A DNA stretch of 64,000 nucleotides from an uncultured Planctomycetota bacterium. Its GTDB lineage: Bacteria > Planctomycetota > Planctomycetia > Isosphaerales > Isosphaeraceae. Numbering within the stretch: the first letter of the stretch is position 1; every line of letters begins with the position of its first letter. The position numbers and the translations under genes were made by a program. The stretch lies in assembly GCA_963845755.1 (NCBI GenBank), contig CAWJTV010000020.1, forward strand, positions 672,001 through 736,000, given 5' to 3'. The notes under the pieces are model-generated. The model searched no databases and was not told the DNA's origin. It was given only the letters and a program-made list of their open reading frames with translations. This document shows positions 43,861 through 54,972 of this stretch, one piece after another.

Positions 43861-44058
43861 GTGCCCCATGTCGCGAGACGCCGGACTCGTTGCTCCCCCC
43901 CGCGCACGTCGGTCGTTCGGCCGTCGGTGCTGGACCAACTCTGGAGCCGACTGACGGACGAGCAGCGTCAACGAACGCTGCTCACCCTCAGCGACATCGT
44001 GACTCGACAACTCGGCGCGCCTCGCACCGCTCAGGAGGTGCGCGATGAAATCTCGTGA
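43861..44058 (+). CDS. Small hypothetical protein overlapping the recombinase start
   Basis: AAGGAGGT RBS near 43855; QLWSRLTDEQRQRTLLTLSDIV; GGAGGTG precedes the recombinase ATG. Confidence 0.45.
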   Translation: MPHVARRRTRCSPPRTSVVRPSVLDQLWSRLTDEQRQRTLLTLSDIVTRQLGAPRTAQEVRDEIS

Positions 44059-46225
44059 TGCACGGGCCGTCAATCGCACGGACAGATCAATCGACGAGAC
44101 TCCATCGACCTCCACCTTCGGCCAGAGGTCGAGCTCGAAGATTGGCGATCGGCATCTCGATCGACTCGCGATCGTGTACGTGCGGCAGTCGACGCCGCAG
44201 CAAGTCCTCGAGAACCGCGAGTCTCGCGAACGGCAGTATGCTCTGGCGCAGTTCGCGCAACGGCTCGGTTGGCCCGCAGAGCGGGTGGTGATCATCGACG
44301 AGGATCAGGGCCACGGCGGCAAGTTGACCGACCATCGCACGGGCTTCCAGCGGTTGATGACGGAAGTGAGCTTGAACCACGTGGGGATCGTGCTGGGGTT
44401 GGAGCTTAGCAGGGTGTCGCGGTCGAATACCGAATGGCATCGTCTTATCGACGTCTGCGGCATCTTTCGCACCCTGCTATGCGATCAAGATGGCGTCTAC
44501 GATGCCTTGGACAGTAACGATCGTCTCCTCCTTGGCATGAAAAGCGCAATGAGCGAATACGAATTGATTACTATGTACAATCGTTTGCTTCGAGGCAGTC
44601 GGAACAAAGCGGAGCGCGGCGAGCTGTTCCTGGCCGTTCCGCTGGGATACCTCAAGACGGCCACGGGCGAGATCATTCAAGAGCCTGACGAGCAGGCGCG
44701 TGGAATGATTCAGTTGGTGTTCGAGAAGTTCGAGGAACTCGGTTCCGCCTACGCGGTCTTCCGTTACCTGGTCGTGAACAACCTGCAACTGGGATTTCGC
44801 CGTCATCGCGGTGGGCGCATTGGGGAGCTGGAGTGGAAGCCAGCCTCTCCCAGTCGAGTCCTGTCGATCTTGCGACACCCCATCTATGCGGGGGCATACG
44901 CTTATGGCCTACATCGCGCGGGGACGAAGAATCCCACGACGGGTCGAGCCGAAGGCGGCAAGTGGTTCGTGCCGCCCGAGGAGTTGGCCGTGTTCCTGCC
45001 GGATCGGCTCCCAGCGTACATTAGCTGGGATCGCTATCTCGCGAATCAGGAACGCCTCAAACAGAATCGATCGCTCCACGACACGCGGGGCGTGCCCAAA
45101 CGCGGCGAGGCCTTGCTGCCCGGCCTGGTCGTCTGTGGGAAATGCGGCCGCCACATGACGACGCGATACAAGGCCGACAAGAAGCCCGGCTATCACTGCG
45201 GCGAGTATTGGCGGCTGGCCCTGGACGAGCCGTGCGGGTGCATCTCGGCAAAGACGCTGGACGACCTGGTCGCGAAGGAAGTGCTCCGCGCGTTGGAGCC
45301 CGCTGCGCTGGACCTGAGCCTACGCGCGATCGAGAACGCCGAGCGAGAGCGCAAGCGCCTCCACGACCATTGGCGTCAGACTCTGGAACGCGCACGCCAG
45401 GAGGTCGAGAGGGCCGAGCGGCAGTATCAGGCCGTGGAGCCCGAGAACCGACTCGTGGCGCGGACACTCGAGGCGCGGTGGGAGGACGCGCTGAAGAAGC
45501 AGCGTCAAACGGAGGAGGATTACCATCGGTTCCTGACGAGACTGCCGGCGACGCTGAACGACGCCGATCGCCAACGGATTCGATCGCTCTCCGAGAGCGT
45601 CGCCGCGCTCTGGCACGCACCAGGCACGTCGGCGATGGATCGCAAGCAGATCGTGCGCTGCGCGGTGGAGCGGGTCATTGTCGTGGCCGACAAGGCGACT
45701 GAGCTCAACGAGGTAACGATCGTTTGGCTCGGCGGCATGACAACCCAACAGCAGGTCGCGAGGCCAGTCGGCAGGTATGAGCAATTGAAGGATTTTCGAC
45801 GCCTCACGGAACGAATCAAGCAACTCCATCGAGAAGGACTTCACCTGTCGCAGATCGCCGCGCGGCTCAATGCCGAGGGCTTCGTCCCGCCGCGCCGTCG
45901 CGGCGTGTTCACGGCGGGAACGATCGGGGCGTTGGTCCGTGAACTTGGGCTGGTCGGAGAACTGTTCCGCGACGACCTCGTCGGCCAGGACGAGTGGTGG
46001 ATCCCCGACTTGGCCGGGAAACTCGGCGTCATCGCCCAGAAGGTCCATTATTGGATCAAGCAGGGTTGGGTCCATTCGCGGCGTACGCCTTCGGGAAAGC
46101 ATCTGATCGTGTGGGCCGACAAGGACGAGGTTCGTCGCCTGCGACAACTGGCCAGACGAAAGAACTCCTGGATCGCCGCCCGGCACCCTGAGTTGGTCGT
46201 TCCCAAGGACCGTCCCGACCGGTAG
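44045..46225 (+). CDS. Large serine recombinase (resolvase, recombinase, Zn ribbon, coiled coil, C-terminal HTHs)
   Basis: AIVYVRQST (catalytic Ser), IDEDQG, LSRVSRS, ILRHPIYAG, LLPGLVVCGKCGRHM, VEPENRLVARTLEARWE. Confidence 0.93.
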   Translation: MKSRDARAVNRTDRSIDETPSTSTFGQRSSSKIGDRHLDRLAIVYVRQSTPQQVLENRESRERQYALAQFAQRLGWPAERVVIIDEDQGHGGKLTDHRTGFQRLMTEVSLNHVGIVLGLELSRVSRSNTEWHRLIDVCGIFRTLLCDQDGVYDALDSNDRLLLGMKSAMSEYELITMYNRLLRGSRNKAERGELFLAVPLGYLKTATGEIIQEPDEQARGMIQLVFEKFEELGSAYAVFRYLVVNNLQLGFRRHRGGRIGELEWKPASPSRVLSILRHPIYAGAYAYGLHRAGTKNPTTGRAEGGKWFVPPEELAVFLPDRLPAYISWDRYLANQERLKQNRSLHDTRGVPKRGEALLPGLVVCGKCGRHMTTRYKADKKPGYHCGEYWRLALDEPCGCISAKTLDDLVAKEVLRALEPAALDLSLRAIENAERERKRLHDHWRQTLERARQEVERAERQYQAVEPENRLVARTLEARWEDALKKQRQTEEDYHRFLTRLPATLNDADRQRIRSLSESVAALWHAPGTSAMDRKQIVRCAVERVIVVADKATELNEVTIVWLGGMTTQQQVARPVGRYEQLKDFRRLTERIKQLHREGLHLSQIAARLNAEGFVPPRRRGVFTAGTIGALVRELGLVGELFRDDLVGQDEWWIPDLAGKLGVIAQKVHYWIKQGWVHSRRTPSGKHLIVWADKDEVRRLRQLARRKNSWIAARHPELVVPKDRPDR

Positions 46226-46541
46226 CAAGAGAGGCCGCCGATTCGTGGCGGCAGTAGCCCAACGTCTCAGGATTTGTGTAACGCCACAAGAACGAGGGTC
46301 CTGTGATGCCAGCATCAAGAGGCTCGAACGCGGCACCTTCCGCATCCCGGACGCGGCGGCCGATCGCGTCGAGATGACCACCGCCGAACTCGCCGCCCTC
46401 CTGGCCGGCATCGATCTGGACAAGGCCCGACGGCGCGTCCGCTACTCGCGGCCCGCCACTCCCCTTCGAAATTCGGAGAATAATCTACCGACAGGAGCAT
46501 AATGCGCCAACAATCGAGCACCCGTCAACGTAGTATAGGGT

Positions 46542-48118
46542 ATGATCACCCTCGCGGACCCACTCCCGGACGACCTGGAGGCGGCCCATCAGCTCATCCG
46601 TGAGCTGCTCAAGTCGCTCGCCCAGCAGGTCCATCTCAACGAGAAGCTCCAGCACCAGCTCGAGCAGCTCCTCCGCCAGCGCGACGGTCCCAAAGGGGAG
46701 CGGATCGACCCGGCCCAGCTCTTGCTCTTCGCCCGGGAGATCCTGGAGCAGGCCGAGGCGGCGCCGACACCCGCCCCGACCCCGGAGCCGGCCCCGGCCC
46801 CGACGCCCGCTCCGAGTGCGGCCCAGAAGAAGGGCCACGGACGCAAGCCGTTGCCGGCGAGCCTGCCCCGAGTGCCGGTCTTGCACGACGTCCCGCCCGA
46901 ACAACGCACTTGCCCCGACTGCGGCGCCGACGCGCACCTGCATCGGCCGGGAAGTCCGCGAGCAACTCGAATTCATCCCCGCCCGCCTGGTCATCCTCGA
47001 ACACATCCGCCCCAAGTACGCTTGCCAGGACTGCCAGGCCAACGTCGTGATCGCCGACGTGCTCCCCGAGCCGATCGACAAGGGCCTGCCAGGCCCGGGG
47101 CTGCTGGCTTACGTCGCCGTCAGCAAATATGCCGATCACTTGCCGCTCTATCGCCTCGAGGGAATCCTCGATCGCTCGGGCGTCGAGTTGTCGCGGTCGA
47201 CGATGTGCGACTGGATGGCCACGATCGCCGATCTGCTCAAGCCGATCGTCGATCTGATGCTGAAGAAGATCCTCAGCTCCAGGGTCGTCCAGAACGACGA
47301 CACGACGGTGCCGGTGCAGGACCACGACGGCAAGGGGATCAAGACCGGCCGGCTCTGGGTCTCCGTCGGCGACCGCGGCCATCCTTACGTGGTCTATCGC
47401 TACACGCCGGACCGCAGCGCCACCGGGCCCCGGGAGATCTTCAAGGACTTCCAGGGTTATCTCCAGGCCGACGCCTATTCGGCCTACGACGGCCTGTACA
47501 AGTCGGGCGAGATTATCGAGGTCGGCTGCATGATGCACGCGCGACGGAAGTTCTACGAGGCGCGGACCGTTCGACCCGCAACGGTCCCATCAGGCGCTGG
47601 CATGGATCAGCCTGCTCTACGACGTCGAACGCGACGCCAAGAAGCGCGCGACCGCGGACTACGAGGCCTTCGTCGCGTTCCGGCACGAACTGCGAAACGA
47701 GCGATCGCGTTCGATCTTCGACAAGTTTCACGCCTGGCTGGAAGCCGAGCAGCCCAAGGTTCTGCCCAAGAGTCCGATCGGCGAAGCGATCCAGTATGCC
47801 TTGAACCATTGGGAGGCCCTGAAGCGTCCGTTGGAGGCCGGGTTCCTCGAACTGGACAACGGTGCGTGCGCGTGCGCGTTCAAGCCCGTGGCGCTGGGAC
47901 GGAAGAACTGGTTATTCGCGGGGAGCGACCAGGGAGGCCAGACGGCGGCCGTGTTGATGAGCTTGTGCACGACCTGCAAGAATCTGGGGATCGACCCCCA
48001 GGCTTACCTCCGCGATGGGCTCGATCGGATCAGCACGCACCCGGCGAAGCGGATCGACGAACTGCTGCCGGACCGCTGGCAGGAGTTGCACCAGGCCGGC
48101 GCCGACGGGACTGAGTGA
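46542..48118 (+). CDS. tnpC: IS66 TnpC transposase (frameshifted)
   Basis: CPDCG, RPKYACQDC, KYADHLPLYRL, NDDTTVPV, YLQADAYSAY, CMMHARRKF, LDNG...GRKNWLFAGS. Confidence 0.93.
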
Positions 48119-48474: not shown

Positions 48475-49536
48475 TCACTCGGCCGCCCTCGCCGAAAGTA
48501 CGGGCTCCGTCGCTTCATGACGGCCGTTCTGATAGACGGCTCGCTCGGCGGTCGCTGAGAACGTTCTCACAGCCGGCGTTGACGTGGTCCGGCCAGGAAT
48601 CCACGCTTCCACAACCCGTCTCACCGCTTCGGCGGGCAGGAACGACGCACAGCCGACCAGCATGATGAGCCCGAACGTCCACATTCCGAGGCAGGCACCG
48701 ATCCCGATGTGGAGCGCAACCCCCAAGGTGAGGACGAGAGGCCGCAGTCTCGGCACCCAGATCAGGGCGCAAAAAGACAATTCCCAGAGGACCGAGACGT
48801 GAGTCATGAAATCCAGGAGCCGTGGGTGCCAGGCGAGCCAGGTCATGTCGATCGACTGGTACTCCAGGTTGGCGAACGCCCGCCACATCGCCTCGCCATT
48901 CCACCAGGCCGGGCCCTGGAGCTTGGAAATGCCGGCGAAGAAATAGATGACGCACATGTGGACGTTGATCAGTCGCAACCCCAGGTTTGCTCCGGCACTC
49001 GGCGCCGGACGCCCGGCCGGGGCCCCGCTCCGTCGTAGGGCCAGCCAGCGATCCAGCGAGAGCGCCGCTCCGCTGGGTCCGATGGTCAGGTACAGGGTGA
49101 GCATCGCGTTGATCTGGTCGAGACCGAACGTGGCCGCCGGAACCCGGTGCGCGAAGGAGAGCGTGACCACCAGCGCCAGGATCGAGGTCACGCGCGTCCA
49201 CAGGCCGAACGTGAATAACGCGAGGACGACCATCGAAAGGCCCCAGGCGATCCAGATCCACCCTTGGGGAACGAGCCACCAGAAGGAATAGATGTACGAT
49301 CCTTGCTGGAGCGTTCGCACGAGACGTTCGCTCAGCCAGCTCCCTGGTCCGAAGAAATCGCCCAGCACCAGGCCCCAGACCGCGTGCGTGTAGAGCAGCA
49401 TCAAGCCCGTCAGGACGCGCAGAACTCCGAGGAGTGTCGGGTCGGCCGGGGTAAACCAGAAGGCATTCCACGCCTCCGCCGTCGCCTGGGCGGACTCTTC
49501 CACATAGCGGAAGACCGGGTTCAGTAACCTTCGCAT
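48475..49536 (-). CDS. HTTM-domain membrane protein (SdpB / gamma-carboxylase-like)
   Basis: WNAFWFTPADPTLLGVLRVLTG, FTFGLWTR, FGLDQI, ALSLDRW, IYFFAGISKLQGPAWWNGEA, LHIGIGACLGMWTFGLIML. Confidence 0.88.
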   Translation of the reverse strand: MRRLLNPVFRYVEESAQATAEAWNAFWFTPADPTLLGVLRVLTGLMLLYTHAVWGLVLGDFFGPGSWLSERLVRTLQQGSYIYSFWWLVPQGWIWIAWGLSMVVLALFTFGLWTRVTSILALVVTLSFAHRVPAATFGLDQINAMLTLYLTIGPSGAALSLDRWLALRRSGAPAGRPAPSAGANLGLRLINVHMCVIYFFAGISKLQGPAWWNGEAMWRAFANLEYQSIDMTWLAWHPRLLDFMTHVSVLWELSFCALIWVPRLRPLVLTLGVALHIGIGACLGMWTFGLIMLVGCASFLPAEAVRRVVEAWIPGRTTSTPAVRTFSATAERAVYQNGRHEATEPVLSARAAE

Positions 49537-50102
49537 CGGAACGTCCCCAAGGACTCCTCTTCGTAACTCTCCGGATCCGACAGGCGTCCGCCGTCGCGGA
49601 CGCGCTCCATGGTCGGCAGGTTGTGCGTCTGCTGGAACAGCGTTACCTGAGTTGCGCCGAACTTCCGGCCGATGTGTTGAGCATACGAATCATACCACAA
49701 AGGCTCGAGCTCCTCCGACGCGTCGTTCATGTGCTCCGTCAGCATGAAGTAACGGTGATAAAGCAGCCGGGGTTGCGTCGCGCGATCGGGGATCCGGCCG
49801 TGGACGACTGTGCCATCCGGGCGCTCCGCGACATATCTCAGGAGTGTGCTCTCCGCCGGCTCGGGGGCGAAGAAGTGGTATCCATGGTCGAGATACAAGA
49901 GTTCGATGTACGGCTGGAACCAACCCCACGTTTCGCGGATCAGGTCGGATGACGGCTCCACTACGGCCGGGGCGATGATCACGGCGGCAACGTGAAAGAT
50001 CAGCCAGAAATTCAGCAGCCTCCGGAGAAAACGGGGACTCGGCCAGGAGACGGGTATGGCTTCTCCGGGAATGACCAGCTCGGGATCCCTGACGTTGTTC
50101 AC
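49521..50102 (-). CDS. SdpA/DUF5819-like membrane-anchored protein
   Basis: One TM with FHVAAV; FQPYIELLYLDHGYHFFAPEP resembles the (W/Y)xxFAPxP motif. The stop overlaps the HTTM start; GTG start after GAGGTG. Confidence 0.65.
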   Translation of the reverse strand: MNNVRDPELVIPGEAIPVSWPSPRFLRRLLNFWLIFHVAAVIIAPAVVEPSSDLIRETWGWFQPYIELLYLDHGYHFFAPEPAESTLLRYVAERPDGTVVHGRIPDRATQPRLLYHRYFMLTEHMNDASEELEPLWYDSYAQHIGRKFGATQVTLFQQTHNLPTMERVRDGGRLSDPESYEEESLGTFRCEGY

Positions 50103-50197
50103 AAACTCACCTCGCTCTCCCAGTACCAGAAGGAGAAACGGCCCGGGAAGACGCACGAAGTGGTCTGCCCGGGACGTTTCGCCCTTGACCCACATTG

Positions 50198-50213
50198 TGC
50201 CAGCCCGCTGGCA
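50198..50213 (-). terminator. Short hairpin after the precursor gene (possible attenuator)
   Basis: TGCCAGC-cc-GCTGGCA about 30 bp downstream of the precursor stop; no clear U-tract. Confidence 0.3.
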
Positions 50214-50240
50214 GAGGCCCAGGGACGGCAATCATTCAGT

Positions 50241-50678
50241 TCAATACGAGCCGCCGGAACCCCAAACGGGACCGGTGCTGTACGAAGCCCCACCGCTCGA
50301 GCCGCCGCTCGAACCCTGGCTACGCTTGTGCTTGCTCATGAAGCCGCCACTGGATCCACCGCTCGAACCCTGGCCACCATGATGCTTGCTGAAGAAGCCG
50401 GCGGAGCTGCCGCCGCTCGAACCTCCGGAAGAACCACCGCTGGAACCGTGGCCGAGCTTGTGCTTGCTCATGAACCCGCCGCCGCTCGAGCCGTGGCCGA
50501 GCTTGTGCTTGCTCATGAACCCGCCGCCGCTGGAACCACCACCACCGCTGGAACCACCACCACCGCTGGAACCGCCACCACTGGAACCGTGGCCAGCGAA
50601 GGCCGTCCCTGTCCCGCAGAACAGGACCATGGCGCTCAGGGCAGCGCCGGTGAAGAAGAACCGACGAAACGTGCTCAT
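50241..50678 (-). CDS. Exported Gly/Ser-rich repeat protein (145 aa), putative precursor peptide
   Basis: AAGGAG RBS; signal peptide MSTFRRFFF...TAFA; mature region of GSSGG repeats with four F(M/F)SKH(K/H) units. Confidence 0.8.
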   Translation of the reverse strand: MSTFRRFFFTGAALSAMVLFCGTGTAFAGHGSSGGGSSGGGGSSGGGGSSGGGFMSKHKLGHGSSGGGFMSKHKLGHGSSGGSSGGSSGGSSAGFFSKHHGGQGSSGGSSGGFMSKHKRSQGSSGGSSGGASYSTGPVWGSGGSY

Positions 50679-51248
50679 GGGAACTCCTTGTGAGTTGCGA
50701 ACCGCTCTTGATGAAAACGCCAGGTAACTCCCAGGGCGTATCCGGCCCCGCCTGCCCGTCTTGTACCTCGTCACGTGCCTGCGATAACCTCCGAATCAGG
50801 TTAATTTCAGGACGTCCGATTCAAGCCAGGACCGGCACCCTTGGGGTGCACCGTTCAGCCCAGACCCGCAAATCAACGCCGCCCTCAAGGAGTGAGGAGC
50901 CGAACCATGGAGTCTCCCTCTGATAAGAACAGTAAACTGTTCGCTCTACAGAGACTGTTGGGTCTGTGAAGGCTGGTCGGTAAAAAGATACTGGATAATT
51001 TGGGAAAATCAAATAGTTAATGTCAACTTGGCAGAACTAAGACTCTCTCCTGCCTCTCTTCCACTCCTGGGCTGGCAAAGTAAGACCAGGTAGGCAATGT
51101 AAGCTAAATGTGAGGGGACTGGATCCGTTCGCGTGAACTGGCGTTGAGTCGCACGATTTCGCCCATTCGATTGGCTTCACGTTCTTGGAATCCGAATCGA
51201 GCCGTGCGGGGACGTAAGGCGGCACTGCGTTCTTCACGAACACCGTTC

Positions 51249-51378: not shown

Positions 51379-54320
51379 TGCTCTGTCACAGCTTAATTTT
51401 GGGGTAGATCGACTTCAATTTGGAGCGGGCATCGTCGATCTTCATCTGCCAATCCACTCCGCGCTGGGTGCTGTTGACGTCGGTTGACCAAGCGGTGGTC
51501 TCCACTCGCAGCGCCTGGGCATCACCGAAGCGGCGGCCGGCTATACACTGCCGCGTCAACGAGCTGAGCTCGTTCTCGGCGATGTTCAGCCAACTGCCGT
51601 GCTTGGGGGTGTAGCAGAACTCGATGCGGCGGACCAACTGGCGAGCACGGGGCGGTGCAAAGACTTCGTAGAAGGCACCCTTGGTGTGCGTGTTCAAGTT
51701 GTCGCATACCACGATCACTCGCTCGGCACTGGCATAACGGCCCTCCAACAGCGCGGCCATCTCGATCGCCCAGTCGACCTTGGTCTTGGTATCCCGGACG
51801 GCCACCTCGCGCCAGCCCGCCAGCGGCTCGGTGAACATAAAGATGTTCGCCGTCCCGGCACGCTCGTATTCGTAGTCGAACGCGCTTGGCGTGTCGGCGC
51901 GTGGCAGGGATCGGCACGCGGGACTCCTTCAGCAATTGCACCGGCTGTTCGTCCATGGACAGGATCGGCCGCATCGAGTCGTAAGGCTTGGCGTAGGTCT
52001 CCAGCACCTCTTCCATGTGGGCCACGAACTCGCCGTCGGCCTCGGGCGGGATGACCCAGTACTCGATCTTGCGGTTGGTCATCCCGTTTTTTTCTAGGCT
52101 GGCAAAGTTAGCTGGAGGCAGCGGTGCTCCAAGTCCTTGAGGTAGGCCTCGGGATTGTGGCGGAACCGGCGTTGCTTCCGCCGCGATTCCCGCCGCACCT
52201 CCAGTTCCGCGCCAGTTCCTTCCAATCCTCAACATAGCCCGGGCTCAACACCAAGCCTTCGTCCGGCCGCAGCCGCGTCGCCAGCCCCGAGATCACCCGC
52301 GCCGAGCCCATCACCACCAGGCCCGGCGACCCCCGACGCCGACCGCTGGCCCGGCGCTCGTGGTAGCGATGACTGCCGAAGGTGTGCTCCAGGTCGTTAT
52401 TCGTCCGCGGCAGATCCGACGACTCGTAGCAGGCAAACAAGCCCGGCCAGTAGCTCCGGGTCACCTTCACGAACTGCTTCAAACCCGCCCGCACCGTGGG
52501 CTCGGTCTGTCGTCGCCGCCGCCCGGCGCATCCGCGCCAGCAGTTGCACCAGCCGCCGCCGCACTTTCTTCGCCGGCAGCCCCTCCTCGTTCTTGAGGAT
52601 CCGGGCGGCGCCGCTTGACCCATTGGTACGACTCCCGCACCGCCGGGAACAGCGCGGCCGTCTCCTCCAGCCCGCGCCGCAGCAATTGCCTCAGCCGTTT
52701 CAAGCCCCCGGGCAGGTCGCCCGCCGTGGCGACGACATGGTCCAGGCTGGCGGCAATCCGGCTCAATCGATCCTGCCGCTTCAGCCCGGAGGCCGACAGC
52801 GGTGGCAGTCCGTCGTCGGTCAAGGCCCCGCGCACCGCGGCGCAGTAGTCCCGCACCACCTCCGCCTCCGCGTCCTCCGCGTCGTCCTCCAGCGTCCTTC
52901 TCCGCCGCACGCTCGATCTTCCGGATGCCCCGCACCCGCTTCTTCAACTCTTTCTTGGCGTGGCGATCCGCCTCGTAGATCGGCTTGGCCGCCTCGCGGA
53001 GGTAGTGGAAATGGCAGAGCTGATGGGGGACACCTTTGAGGGCCATAGCCACGGCGTTGCGGATGCTCTCCTGACCGTCGGAGACCACGCCGGTGATCGG
53101 CACCGGCAGGGCCTTCCGCACCTGGTCGATCAGGCCGGCCAGGTCCTGGGCCGTGGACGACAGCAGGCTCTTGGCCAGGAGGATCTCGCCGGAGAGGCAG
53201 TCGCGCAGCACCCAGAGGACCTCGTGGCCGACATCCGGCTGCAGGCCGTCGATGGCCAGGATGACGCGGCCCTGCGGGCGCAACAGCGGACCGAGTCGCT
53301 GGGGATCGGCCGTGGCCAGGGACCGCAGCTCGTCGTAGCGGTCCAACAGGTTGGTGACGGTGCGTTCGGCCAGGATGAGCCCGCGGTGCGTGAGCTCGCG
53401 GTGGATCTCGGGGATGCTGCGGTGCTCGGCATAGCGGAGCCGGCCCACCAGGGCCATGACGTCGAGGCCGAACTCGTGATAGGGCAAGGCGAAGTGGGGC
53501 TCAGCCTCGGGGCGGTAGGGTCGGAGGAAGCGGGAGCAGGCGGGATTGGGGCAGCGTCGGATCGTCAGGGTCAGCCGGAAGACGCCGTCGAGGGTGCTGA
53601 TGGTGCGAAAGTTGTTGTAGTCGGCACCGGTCCGGTGCCGGCACTCGGGGCAGTTCAAGAGGACCGGGGTGAGGGTTAGGTCGCGATCGGGTTGCGGTCG
53701 AGGTCGTCGTCGTTTGTGGTTGCGCATGGAAAGCCTCCTCTGCTCTGTTCTGTTCTTACGTCCATTATACCAAGCCGAGGGGCTTCCCAGCTACTTTTGC
53801 TATCCTAGTTTTTTTCAGAGTCCGCCGCACCGTCTCGTAACTGACGGTTTCGACGATCCCCAGTTCCACCACCTTTCGAGCTAAGAGCCGCAGCGTCCAG
53901 TTGGCATAACCCGGGGGCGGTGACCCGAGCCGTGTGGCGATGATCTTCGCCTCCTGTTCGCCGTTGAGTCGCTTCTCGACCGGCGGCATCTGGCGCCTGC
54001 TGCGGTCCAATGCCTCTCGAAAGCCGTACTCCACGAGACGCTGACGAATGTTCTCGACGGTCTGCGTTCGGCATCCGAACGCCTCGGCGATGCGACGATC
54101 GGTCCAGTTCGGACCGTCCGCATCGGCCTTGAACAGGATCTGGGCGCGTCGAACCTTCTCGCTGGTTCCCTTCAACTTCTTGATCACGGCCGCCAACTCG
54201 TCCCGTTCCTCAGCCGTAAGCCGGACAATGTACTTCTTGTTCATGGGGGCCTCCTTGTTCCCCGTATCATCCACGGTCGCGGAGGTTTCCCCAACCCCAA
54301 TTTTTAGCTGTGACAAAGCA
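51379..54320 (-). mobile_element. IS630-family element (OrfA 54244-53817, OrfB to 51386), interrupted
   Basis: TIRs TGCTCTGTCACAGCTTAATTTTGGGGT / TGCTTTGTCACAGCTAAAAATTGGGGT with CTAG on both sides; MNKKYIVRLT...WTLRLLA; MDEQPVQL, VCDNLNTH, YTPKHGSWLNIAENE. Confidence 0.93.
52095..53807 (-). mobile_element. IS with a CxxH-type (IS256/Mutator-like or ISNCY) DDE transposase, nested in IS630
   Basis: TIRs TAGGCTGGCAAAGTTAGCTGG / TAGGATAGCAAAAGTAGCTGG; 9-bp TSD GTTTTTTTC at 52086-52094 and 53808-53816. Transposase 53727-52108 has LAIDG, VVSDG, HQLCHFH, RTNNDLE. Confidence 0.85.
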
Positions 54321-54972
54321 CTAGTCATTCTTGAGAAAGACGGCCTTGCCGGATTGAGCCTTCGGCGAGTTGCGACCGCATTGGATACTGGCGCGGCATC
54401 GCTTTATGTCTACCTGGCAAATCTCGACGAGCTGTATGCCCTGATGCTCGACGAAGCACTGGCGGCGGTCAAATTGCCCGAAGCTCTCGACCTACCCTGG
54501 CGGGATCGGTTGAAGACAATTCTCCTATCATATTTCTATGTTCTCAATGAACGGCAGGGCTTGGCTCAACTTGCCATGTCGACAATTGCCACTGGCCCCA
54601 ATTCACTGCGCATTTGGGAACGCCTCCTTGGTATTCTCAAGGAGGGCGGAGTGGATGATGTACGAGCCGTTTGGGTTGTAAACCTGTTACTCTTGTACGT
54701 CACGGCCATTGTCGCCGAACAGAGCAATTGGCGCGCGATTGGCCAAGACCTTGGGCGAGTGAAGAGCGCGTTATCTAATATATCTGTGGAGCAGTTTCCC
54801 ATCGTATCCGCGCTTTTTCGGGGGGGAATTCTCTCAGGCGGTGGCGACAGCGAAAGCCGCGTACTGTGGGCGCTCGATGTCATCATCAACGGCATCAAGG
54901 CCGACCACGCGCCGCCGCCTCGTATCGCCACGTAACGAAGACCACCGAGTACACGAACTCTGGAGAACTCCC

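Follow-up and report, generated by a model that had tools for sequence, protein, structure and literature searches.

Introduction

Proteins of the HTTM family are widespread in bacteria, and within the accessible text of the literature cited here a defined reaction is assigned only to GGCX, the vitamin K-dependent carboxylase (VKDC) that acts on Glu, and to MloH, which acts on an aspartyl residue of a small molecule. In GGCX, Lys218 is described as the general base, with Trp223 stacking on it and Asp263 beside it, while Phe299 stacks on CO2 (PMC12647623). MloH, of the malonomycin pathway, is described as a VKDC-type enzyme from bacteria whose target for carboxylation is not the Glu gamma-carbon but another carbon (PMC12647623, PMC12186529). 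As far as the available text goes, the role of HTTM proteins in the Sdp and linaridin systems is loosely described or unclear (PMC6818787, PMC9927463): SdpA and SdpB are reported as needed for SdpC to be processed into the SDP peptide (PMC6818787), and HTTM proteins have been found in the gene clusters of linaridins, which are ribosomally synthesised peptides with post-translational modifications (RiPPs; PMC9927463). Complexes of DUF5819 proteins with HTTM proteins were predicted in 2026 to resemble whole GGCX (preprint 10.64898/2026.08.19.745780). Here we describe a three-gene module from an uncultured member of the Isosphaeraceae (Planctomycetota), found in a 64,000-nucleotide stretch of contig CAWJTV010000020.1 (assembly GCA_963845755.1, positions 672,001 to 736,000; hereafter the window). 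The module, or trio, encodes an exported GSSGG-repeat protein, a middle protein with a single transmembrane (TM) helix, which we call MID, and an HTTM protein.

We propose, at a probability of roughly 0.6, that this module is a split, divergent, periplasm-facing GGCX-like enzyme, formed by the HTTM protein and a DUF5819-like cap, together with a dedicated protein substrate encoded just upstream. The enzyme class is already known as a family, and GGCX-like complexes of such pairs have been predicted in the accessible part of the preprint named above. What is new here is the divergent MID family, its conserved link to candidate substrates of the GSSGG-repeat/TIGR03000 type, and the non-Glu modification that this link implies. 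Full-text literature searches, with most subscription journals outside their coverage, returned nothing on a link between HTTM proteins and planctomycete repeat proteins.

A conserved, self-contained three-gene module

The trio is encoded on the minus strand, where direct reading of the sequence bears out the three co-oriented genes described in an earlier note on this DNA. The repeat-protein gene comes first (50241..50678, 145 amino acids, ATG at 50678), followed by MID (49521..50102, 193 amino acids) and the HTTM gene (48475..49536, 353 amino acids). The MID stop codon (49521-49523) lies within the HTTM gene, whose ATG is at 49536, giving a 16-nt overlap (49521..49536) that points to translational coupling. 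Orthologous loci show the same 16-nt overlap or one of 4-13 nt.

To place this arrangement in context, one genome per prokaryote species was scanned for relatives of MID, which gave 424 loci, of which the best 80 were kept. Upstream sequence of 900 nt or more was available at 75 loci, and in each of these we searched up to 1.8 kb for a same-strand open reading frame (ORF) containing four or more GSSGG-type motifs. Such an ORF was found upstream of MID at 65 of the 75 loci, against none on the opposite strand (0/75), none in downstream windows (0/61) and none in far-upstream windows (0/63). An HTTM gene follows MID at all 79 public loci. The arrangement is therefore far beyond chance, and the expectation that planctomycete orthologues would lie beside a conserved repeat protein is upheld. 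The same adjacency makes the exported repeat protein the best candidate substrate of the MID-HTTM pair, the role that the earlier note had given it.

Among close relatives, MID is present in 24 of 41 genomes, and the HTTM gene comes directly after MID at each of the 20 loci fetched from them. At 12 of 13 orthologous loci a same-strand gene with a signal peptide and GSSGG repeats lies just upstream; at the exception (L031) the HTTM gene is broken as well. When ORFs of the 20 relative loci were grouped, with the low-complexity filter of BLAST switched on, the widely common groups were HTTM (19 loci), MID (15) and the repeat protein (5). All-against-all comparison of flanking ORFs found no further gene in more than two of the 13 orthologous loci, and no protease, transporter (ABC exporter) or immunity gene conserved beside the trio. 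Synteny beyond the trio is not kept across loci. In genome G017 the trio is present twice and complete both times, the repeat protein being short in one copy and long in the other. The three genes are one conserved, self-contained module.

Across the best 80 loci, MID is 39-72% identical to the window protein, and the record titles name Isosphaeraceae, Planctomycetaceae, Pirellulales, Tautonia, Alienimonas, Fuerstiella and others. A sample of 201 genomes spread evenly over the phylum contained MID in four, all from the window's own class. The module has thus been seen so far mainly in the class to which Isosphaeraceae, Planctomycetaceae and Pirellulales belong. MID-HTTM loci also occur in metagenome-assembled genomes (MAGs) whose labels fall outside the groups of the other 77 loci, namely L076 (labelled Solirubrobacteraceae), which has no repeat-protein gene, and L086 and L108 (labelled Candidatus Kuenenia); these could reflect mis-binning or rare transfer.

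The HTTM protein keeps the quinol and CO2 residues of GGCX

The third gene of the trio encodes a polytopic membrane protein that matches the Pfam HTTM model (PF05090) at 28.2 bits, against a cut-off of 27.7 (E = 1.7e-6, model positions 1-256 of 259). Most close relatives of this protein carry precomputed PF05090 annotation, and the profile of its family matches human GGCX at E = 3.5e-4 over GGCX residues 57-329. Together these matches bear out the earlier note, which had named the product as an HTTM protein and tied this family to the membrane domain of GGCX.

Six residues are invariant in 29 aligned HTTM sequences: Lys205, Trp211, Glu252, Arg265, His276 and Phe288, which align with GGCX Lys218, Trp223, Asp263, Arg276, His287 and Phe299, respectively. 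The general-base and CO2 residues of GGCX (Lys218, Trp223, Asp263 and Phe299) are therefore all represented, with Asp263 replaced by Glu. By contrast, the residues of GGCX that bind the Glu carboxylate, Asn159 and His160, are not kept and align with Gly138 and Leu139 of the window protein, from which the region of GGCX Tyr395 is also missing. The loss of Asn159/His160 fits a substrate other than Glu, and the repeat protein described below, with no Glu or Asp in its mature part, lacks the residue on which GGCX acts.

The comparison with GGCX (PDB 9bvk, 9l54) thus yields both likenesses and differences. The HTTM membrane domain is shared, and in both systems the active side would face away from the cytoplasm and the substrate, here a candidate, is exported, with a docking motif probable here. 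Unlike GGCX, the putative module enzyme is split over two genes. The luminal/clamp domain, which in GGCX binds the propeptide of the substrate, has no detectable counterpart: the HTTM chain lacks one, and the MID domain, although predicted to cap the HTTM protein, has no significant fold match in the PDB.

MID is a remote relative of DUF5819-like partner subunits

MID (49521..50102, minus strand) contains a TM helix at about residues 23-46 and a putative periplasmic alpha/beta domain at residues 85-189, with the motif YLDHGYHFFAPEP. Its likely start is the GTG at 50102, which gives the 193-residue length of the orthologues, rather than that of a longer ORF. The single-TM protein with a YHFFAPEP motif and a stop overlapping the HTTM gene, as reported previously, is readily found (GYHFFAPEP). 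The family is large: at 90% identity it forms 712 clusters, and at 50% identity (E <= 0.001) there are 1821. A protein atlas places MID in unnamed planctomycete clusters only. No Pfam domain is precomputed for any of the 120 members listed, and none of 74 diverse members matches any family model at E <= 0.01.

DUF5819 (PF19136) does not match the window MID and matches 0 of the 74 members at E <= 0.01; at E <= 10 it matches two of them (best E = 0.02) and is the only family matched by more than one member. It is likewise absent above its cut-off from all 151 planctomycete genomes searched. The SdpA model (TIGR04034) does not match MID at E <= 0.1 and matches nothing genome-wide at E <= 10. Comparison of family alignments gave a different picture. 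A canonical HTTM gene lies outside the window in the source genome (contig C20:424299-428108, locus L042), where it is preceded by a single-TM protein of about 180 residues and has no repeat-protein gene beside it. In the family of that preceding protein, 18 of 19 aligned members match DUF5819, below its cut-off. An hhalign comparison of this family with the MID family returned 95.5% probability (E = 1.5e-8) over 140 columns. Among these are the TM helix and the His conserved in it, together with the FAPxP and PR..Y.R motifs. The relationship is seen only once the family has been aligned, as the MID alignment gave 0.15% probability against the single DUF5819-like ORF. On this profile evidence, MID is a remote relative of DUF5819-like HTTM partner subunits.

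Structural models of MID (confidence, pLDDT, 80.9) and of its soluble domain alone (86.6) show an alpha/beta domain of four strands and another helix in addition to the TM helix. Searches with the full model found no match in the PDB at E <= 0.001 with Foldseek and nothing convincing with VIA-align (wide), with best Z scores of 5.4 for the full model and 5.2 for the soluble domain; the MID profile had no match among PDB sequences at E <= 10. GGCX is not among the structure matches listed, a result from which neither a difference between the folds nor the novelty of the MID fold can be concluded.

MID and the HTTM protein are predicted to form a complex. Co-folding gave an interface score (ipSAE) of 0.92 in each of three runs, compared with 0.01 for the best control. 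Of 157 solved complexes 116 attain that mark, as do two of 215 mismatched pairs, counts that hold only roughly here because the co-fold was made from our own alignments. The 16-nt overlap of the two genes is in line with a two-subunit complex. Contacts agreed between runs to at least 98%, and partner pLDDT was at least 85. The predicted interface includes HTTM residues 200-211 (with Lys205) and 132-141 and, in MID, His37, residues 111-121 and His160. More broadly, the MID TM helix (His37 and its neighbours) is predicted to contact HTTM 189-200, while MID 63-85 and 105-175 would contact HTTM 49-83, 125-148 and 204-238. Reading the topology by eye with the positive-inside rule, we infer that the HTTM segments in contact with MID are periplasmic loops, with Lys205 at the periplasmic end of its helix. 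Arg residues ahead of the MID helix would place the MID domain in the periplasm too. MID is thus predicted to cap the HTTM protein from the periplasmic side, although its domain has no significant fold or sequence match in the PDB, and this arrangement would fit an exported substrate.

In several respects the pair resembles the DUF5819-HTTM pairs of the preprint (10.64898/2026.08.19.745780), as these are described in its accessible part. In both cases the genes are adjacent, the partner is a protein of about 190 residues that has a soluble domain besides a single N-terminal TM helix, and a complex is predicted with high confidence. The Lys/Trp/Phe residues are also spaced alike (Lys189/Trp195/Phe273 in the preprint, Lys205/Trp211/Phe288 here). 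In contrast to those pairs, MID does not reach the DUF5819 model, the homology being remote only, and the window HTTM protein has no DCC1-like domain. A candidate protein substrate is identified here, whereas the accessible part of the preprint names none.

The upstream gene encodes an exported, acid-free repeat protein

The earlier note had described the first gene as encoding a 145-residue precursor with a strong ribosome-binding site (RBS), a signal peptide, GSSGG repeats and four motifs, and every one of these elements is found. A Shine-Dalgarno-like AAGGAG (50684..50689, minus strand) stands 5 nt ahead of the ATG. Residues 1-28 (50595..50678), MSTFRRFFFTGAALSAMVLFCGTGTAFA, running from MSTFRRFFF to GTGTAFA, form a signal peptide with n-, h- and c-regions recognisable by eye and an A-x-A site ahead of GHG. 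The mature part (50241..50594) is a run of GSSGG units broken by four hydrophobic-basic motifs (FMSKHKLGH twice, FFSKHH and FMSKHKRS), closing with a C-terminal GGSY and the stop codon. The gene is also a tandem repeat at the DNA level, with a period of 45 (92% matches) as well as periods of 54 and 18. The mature region contains no Cys, Glu or Asp, so that neither Glu carboxylation nor disulfide formation fits, in agreement with the earlier note. The protein has no family match in Pfam or NCBIfam, TIGR03000 (cut-off 43.1 bits) included.

The 65 upstream ORFs identified above allow the family as a whole to be characterised. Their repeat regions consist of 41% Gly, 32% Ser and 6.4% His, with Phe, Tyr, Lys, Leu, Trp and Arg at about 2-3% each and only 0.2% Asp+Glu and 0.2% Cys. 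Acidic residues are absent altogether from 57 of the 65, and 560 of 576 SSGG sites are preceded by Gly. At the 12 orthologous loci of close relatives the motifs take spellings such as GGFLSKHH, GGFFGHH, SLFSHG and GGLFSKHH, and both their number and their spelling differ freely among close relatives. The earlier note had looked to Ser-Ser or Lys/His as the sites of modification. Lys and His are not universal, the repeats of one orthologue (L029) being without both; what is universal is the presence of aromatic or hydrophobic residues together with GSSGG, and nothing more. BLASTP aligned only 14 residues of the window protein with a same-genus orthologue (E = 3.7), and the orthology of the repeat proteins accordingly rests on position, composition and motifs rather than on alignment.

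The C-terminal part is more variable. Short forms ending in GGSY, like the window protein (50241-50255), make up 17 of the 65, and this shared ending suggests a conserved C-terminal feature for recognition, anchoring or processing. One or two TIGR03000 domains follow the repeats in 24 of the 65 above the model's cut-off, or in 26 at E <= 0.001. In three MAGs labelled Planctomyces sp. (L103, L104 and L115), TIGR03000 is replaced by another conserved C-terminal domain (...EISVS...VEDEAGHFDELEGYFGDDDKWHFE...RLRLIP..) that has no NCBIfam match. Given this variability, the constant part of the family is the exported GSSGG region, with its aromatic/His residues and at least one hydrophobic-basic segment. 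TIGR03000 proteins are specific to planctomycetes, and in this domain they resemble the 24 orthologues and not the window protein. A full-text literature search for 'TIGR03000' found no paper. The only TIGR03000 protein found in the source genome (contig C47) lacks GSSGG repeats, and neither MID nor HTTM is encoded beside it.

The Tat export motif is S/T-R-R-x-F-L-K, with a twin arginine. The TFRRFFF of the window signal peptide contains such a pair, but this feature is not conserved, many orthologues having a single Arg or R-x-S, and export of the repeat protein by Sec is more likely than export by Tat as judged from these signal sequences. Several orthologues (L101, from Alienimonas sp. DA493, L117 and L072-L074) have runs of GGGLFG or SLFxGHGSSGG. 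These runs seem to resemble the GLFG repeats of nucleoporins, and may hint at cohesive, gel-forming behaviour.

The earlier description of the first gene product as a multi-core precursor invites a more specific reading, in which it is a true RiPP precursor that is cut at the K/H-rich motifs, after export and modification, into small bioactive or signalling peptides. The window protein is indeed short, with four near-identical motif units in tandem, and the short forms with a GGSY end are in keeping with this reading, as is the presence of HTTM proteins in linaridin RiPP clusters (reported in the accessible part of PMC9927463). On the other hand, more than a third of the orthologues (24/65) carry one or two folded TIGR03000 domains and others a different C-terminal domain, the supposed cores are 73% Gly+Ser, motif count and spelling are free to vary among close relatives, and the trio has no conserved neighbour that would serve as protease, ABC exporter or immunity gene. 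The multi-core description in the RiPP sense is therefore doubtful, and we consider processing into peptides quite improbable.

A paralogous pair adjoins a different repeat protein

A second, more distant MID-HTTM pair is present in the source genome (contig C19, about 42.6-46.2 kb; L039 and L050) and in six other genomes, the paralogous loci also including L035-L038, L040 and L041. At seven of seven loci this pair lies divergent beside a lipoprotein-like exported protein built of SCYS-type repeats (SCYS/GCYG), with a GGLF...H/K/R motif in most of them and a Pro/Ala-rich tail. A gene for a GT2 polyprenyl-phosphate glycosyltransferase-like protein is found near the pair at four loci, as is a small conserved downstream gene (four loci). 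At three paralogous loci, genes named by eye as an Rrf2-like regulator and a sulfate ABC transporter follow.

The presence of a different low-complexity exported protein beside the paralogous pair strengthens the enzyme-substrate reading. It also bears on a rival proposal, in which the repeat protein has a structural or metal-binding role in the periplasm or at the surface, and the quinone-dependent membrane enzyme is unrelated to it, shares only its transcript and does not act on it. The His content and regular aromatic residues of the repeats could be understood in this way, the fusion to TIGR03000 suggests a structural role, and ten of 75 enzyme loci have no repeat gene. Against it stand same-strand adjacency at 65 of 75 loci while all other neighbours change, duplication of the whole trio as a unit in G017, a paralogous pair that has its own SCYS-repeat neighbour with a GGLF...HK motif, and repeats that can dispense with both His and Lys, as in L029. 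We therefore regard mere co-transcription as highly improbable.

Comparison with the Sdp and MloH systems

The earlier note had called the trio an SdpABC-like operon. The analogy stands at the level of the superfamily, through the remotely DUF5819-like MID: as in the SdpABC and YitPOM systems of Bacillus subtilis (described in the accessible part of PMC6818787), the genes of a small TM protein and an HTTM protein accompany that of an exported protein, which relies on the two there and would do so here. It does not extend further. The best NCBIfam match of the HTTM protein is the SdpB family (TIGR04033), but at 43.6 bits it is far under the cut-off of 178.4, and of the model searches that the note had called for, HTTM succeeded whereas DUF5819 and SdpA did not find MID. 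The gene order is A-B-C in SdpABC, while the candidate substrate comes first in the trio; this substrate is a Gly/Ser repeat protein rather than one with a hydrophobic toxin core, and unlike SdpABC the trio has no immunity or regulator genes alongside. There is nothing to connect the repeat protein with SdpC, since neither Pfam nor NCBIfam has a family that it matches.

The same comparison raises the possibility that MID-HTTM is a maturation, processing or anchoring factor like SdpA/SdpB, which would cleave, release, fold or membrane-attach the repeat protein and add no covalent group. The trio linkage applies equally to such a factor, cleavage or contact with the membrane could take place at the hydrophobic-basic motifs, SdpB is the nearest NCBIfam family, and in the accessible text of PMC6818787 SdpA and SdpB are themselves reported only as needed for the conversion of SdpC to SDP. 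A purely chaperone-like role would, however, require none of the GGCX residues for quinol deprotonation and CO2 positioning, which are invariant here; the SdpB score is low, as noted above, and no protease gene is conserved beside the trio. On balance we think such a role rather unlikely.

MloH provides a precedent for the chemistry, since its alpha-carboxylation, as set out in the available text (PMC12186529, PMC12647623), shows a VKDC-type enzyme acting outside Glu. MloH is a single fused protein that acts on a polyketide-nonribosomal peptide intermediate in the cytoplasmic pathway of a Streptomyces, whereas the putative trio enzyme is encoded by two genes and its candidate substrate is an exported protein.

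Genomic setting

The repeat-protein gene and MID are separated by a 138-nt spacer (50103..50240, minus strand) with stem-loops and a GAGGTG RBS 5 nt from the GTG. The short hairpin reported after the first gene is real in that stems can fold, but with a minimum free energy of -61.5 kcal/mol (z = -1.61) the spacer is not distinct from shuffled sequence, a scan found no terminator-like site in it, and it has no match to any Rfam family. A terminator or attenuator function for this hairpin was rejected on these grounds.

Debris of mobile elements surrounds the trio in the window (44045-48118 and 51386-54328). On one side lie a large serine recombinase (44045-46225) and pieces of an IS66-family transposase in two frames (46542-48118); on the other, an IS630-like element is represented by DDE_3 and HTH_32 pieces (51386-51838 and 53765-54328), and one ORF (52108-53727) matches IS66 weakly. 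In sequencing datasets the 2.4-kb stretch appears only as small-share rows of soil metagenome DNA, with no RNA dataset listed.

Discussion

We are now able to propose a working model for the module. MID and HTTM would form a two-subunit inner-membrane enzyme with the architecture of a split, divergent vitamin K-dependent carboxylase, in which HTTM would supply the quinol-deprotonating Lys and the CO2-stacking Phe, and MID one TM helix and a periplasmic domain capping the active site. This active site would open towards the periplasm and use menaquinol and O2 to generate a strong base, which would modify the Sec-exported, intrinsically disordered, acid-free protein encoded just upstream. The presumed substrate is composed of [aromatic/His]-GSSGG units broken by hydrophobic-basic motifs of the form GG-F/L-F/L/M-x-K/H-H. 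These motifs are probably docking sites, akin to the propeptide for GGCX, and the GSSGG units are the best candidates for the modified sites. The modified atom would not be the Glu gamma-carbon; the base could instead drive carboxylation elsewhere, for example at C-alpha of Gly or Ser, with epimerisation or elimination by the same strong base as alternatives. Because the quinol and CO2 residues are kept, the Glu binders lost and the substrate acid-free, non-Glu carboxylation ranks first among these chemistries, and we infer that it is the most likely. As to the cofactor, the genome contains MqnA-family genes of the futalosine pathway, which makes menaquinone synthesis by that route plausible.

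Several observations weigh against this model. Ten of the 75 loci have no adjacent GSSGG gene, although two of these (L059 and L079) have weaker versions of the repeat protein, and the complete genome G210 contains a MID-HTTM pair without a repeat gene. The loci come from related genomes and are not independent samples. Gene adjacency shows functional linkage, not an enzyme-substrate relation. The Pfam score of the HTTM protein is barely over the cut-off, and a genome-wide scan at E <= 0.001 listed another, canonical HTTM gene (65.4 bits) and not that of the window. Conservation of the Lys/Trp/Phe set may be a general HTTM trait that includes proteins such as SdpB. MID lies below the thresholds of the SdpA and DUF5819 models, and its periplasmic domain has no convincing solved relative, so that the description of the pair as a split GGCX rests on the HTTM half, the predicted complex (with its approximate calibration) and analogy. 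Finally, a search of the genome, whose completeness is 87.9%, gave no match to the MenA model.

Within non-Glu carboxylation, a more specific and distinctly tentative version, which we consider unlikely as it stands, is that MID-HTTM, with menaquinol and O2, attaches a carboxyl group to the alpha-carbon of Gly (or Ser) in GSSGG, giving acid-labile, Ca2+-binding residues of the aminomalonate type. Aminomalonate has been reported in bacterial protein hydrolysates (reports cited in the accessible text of PMC12186529).

Whatever the chemistry, the module offers something that had been lacking for GGCX-like enzymes of bacteria: a candidate protein substrate that is simple, repetitive and genetically obvious. 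Cultured strains are among its carriers: Tautonia sp. JC769 has a full trio (L075), and Aquisphaera giovannonii encodes a MID orthologue (OJF2_03990) with 64% identity. A mass shift, if there is one, would recur many times within each molecule, which would make it easy to detect. It also provides a first functional context for two groups of proteins: MID, a large unannotated family without a Pfam model, and the GSSGG-repeat/TIGR03000 proteins that are typical of planctomycetes. If the module does carry out a new extracytoplasmic, ATP-free carboxylation, epimerisation or elimination, it would be of enzymological and possibly biotechnological interest. Should alpha-carboxylation of Gly or Ser prove correct, the repeat protein would become the first known case of a bacterial vitamin K-type carboxylase acting on a ribosomally made protein, its product a new post-translational modification, and the reaction an enzymatic origin for the aminomalonate of bacterial protein hydrolysates. 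A cationic, disordered repeat would thereby be converted into a polyanionic, calcium-binding component of the planctomycete envelope.

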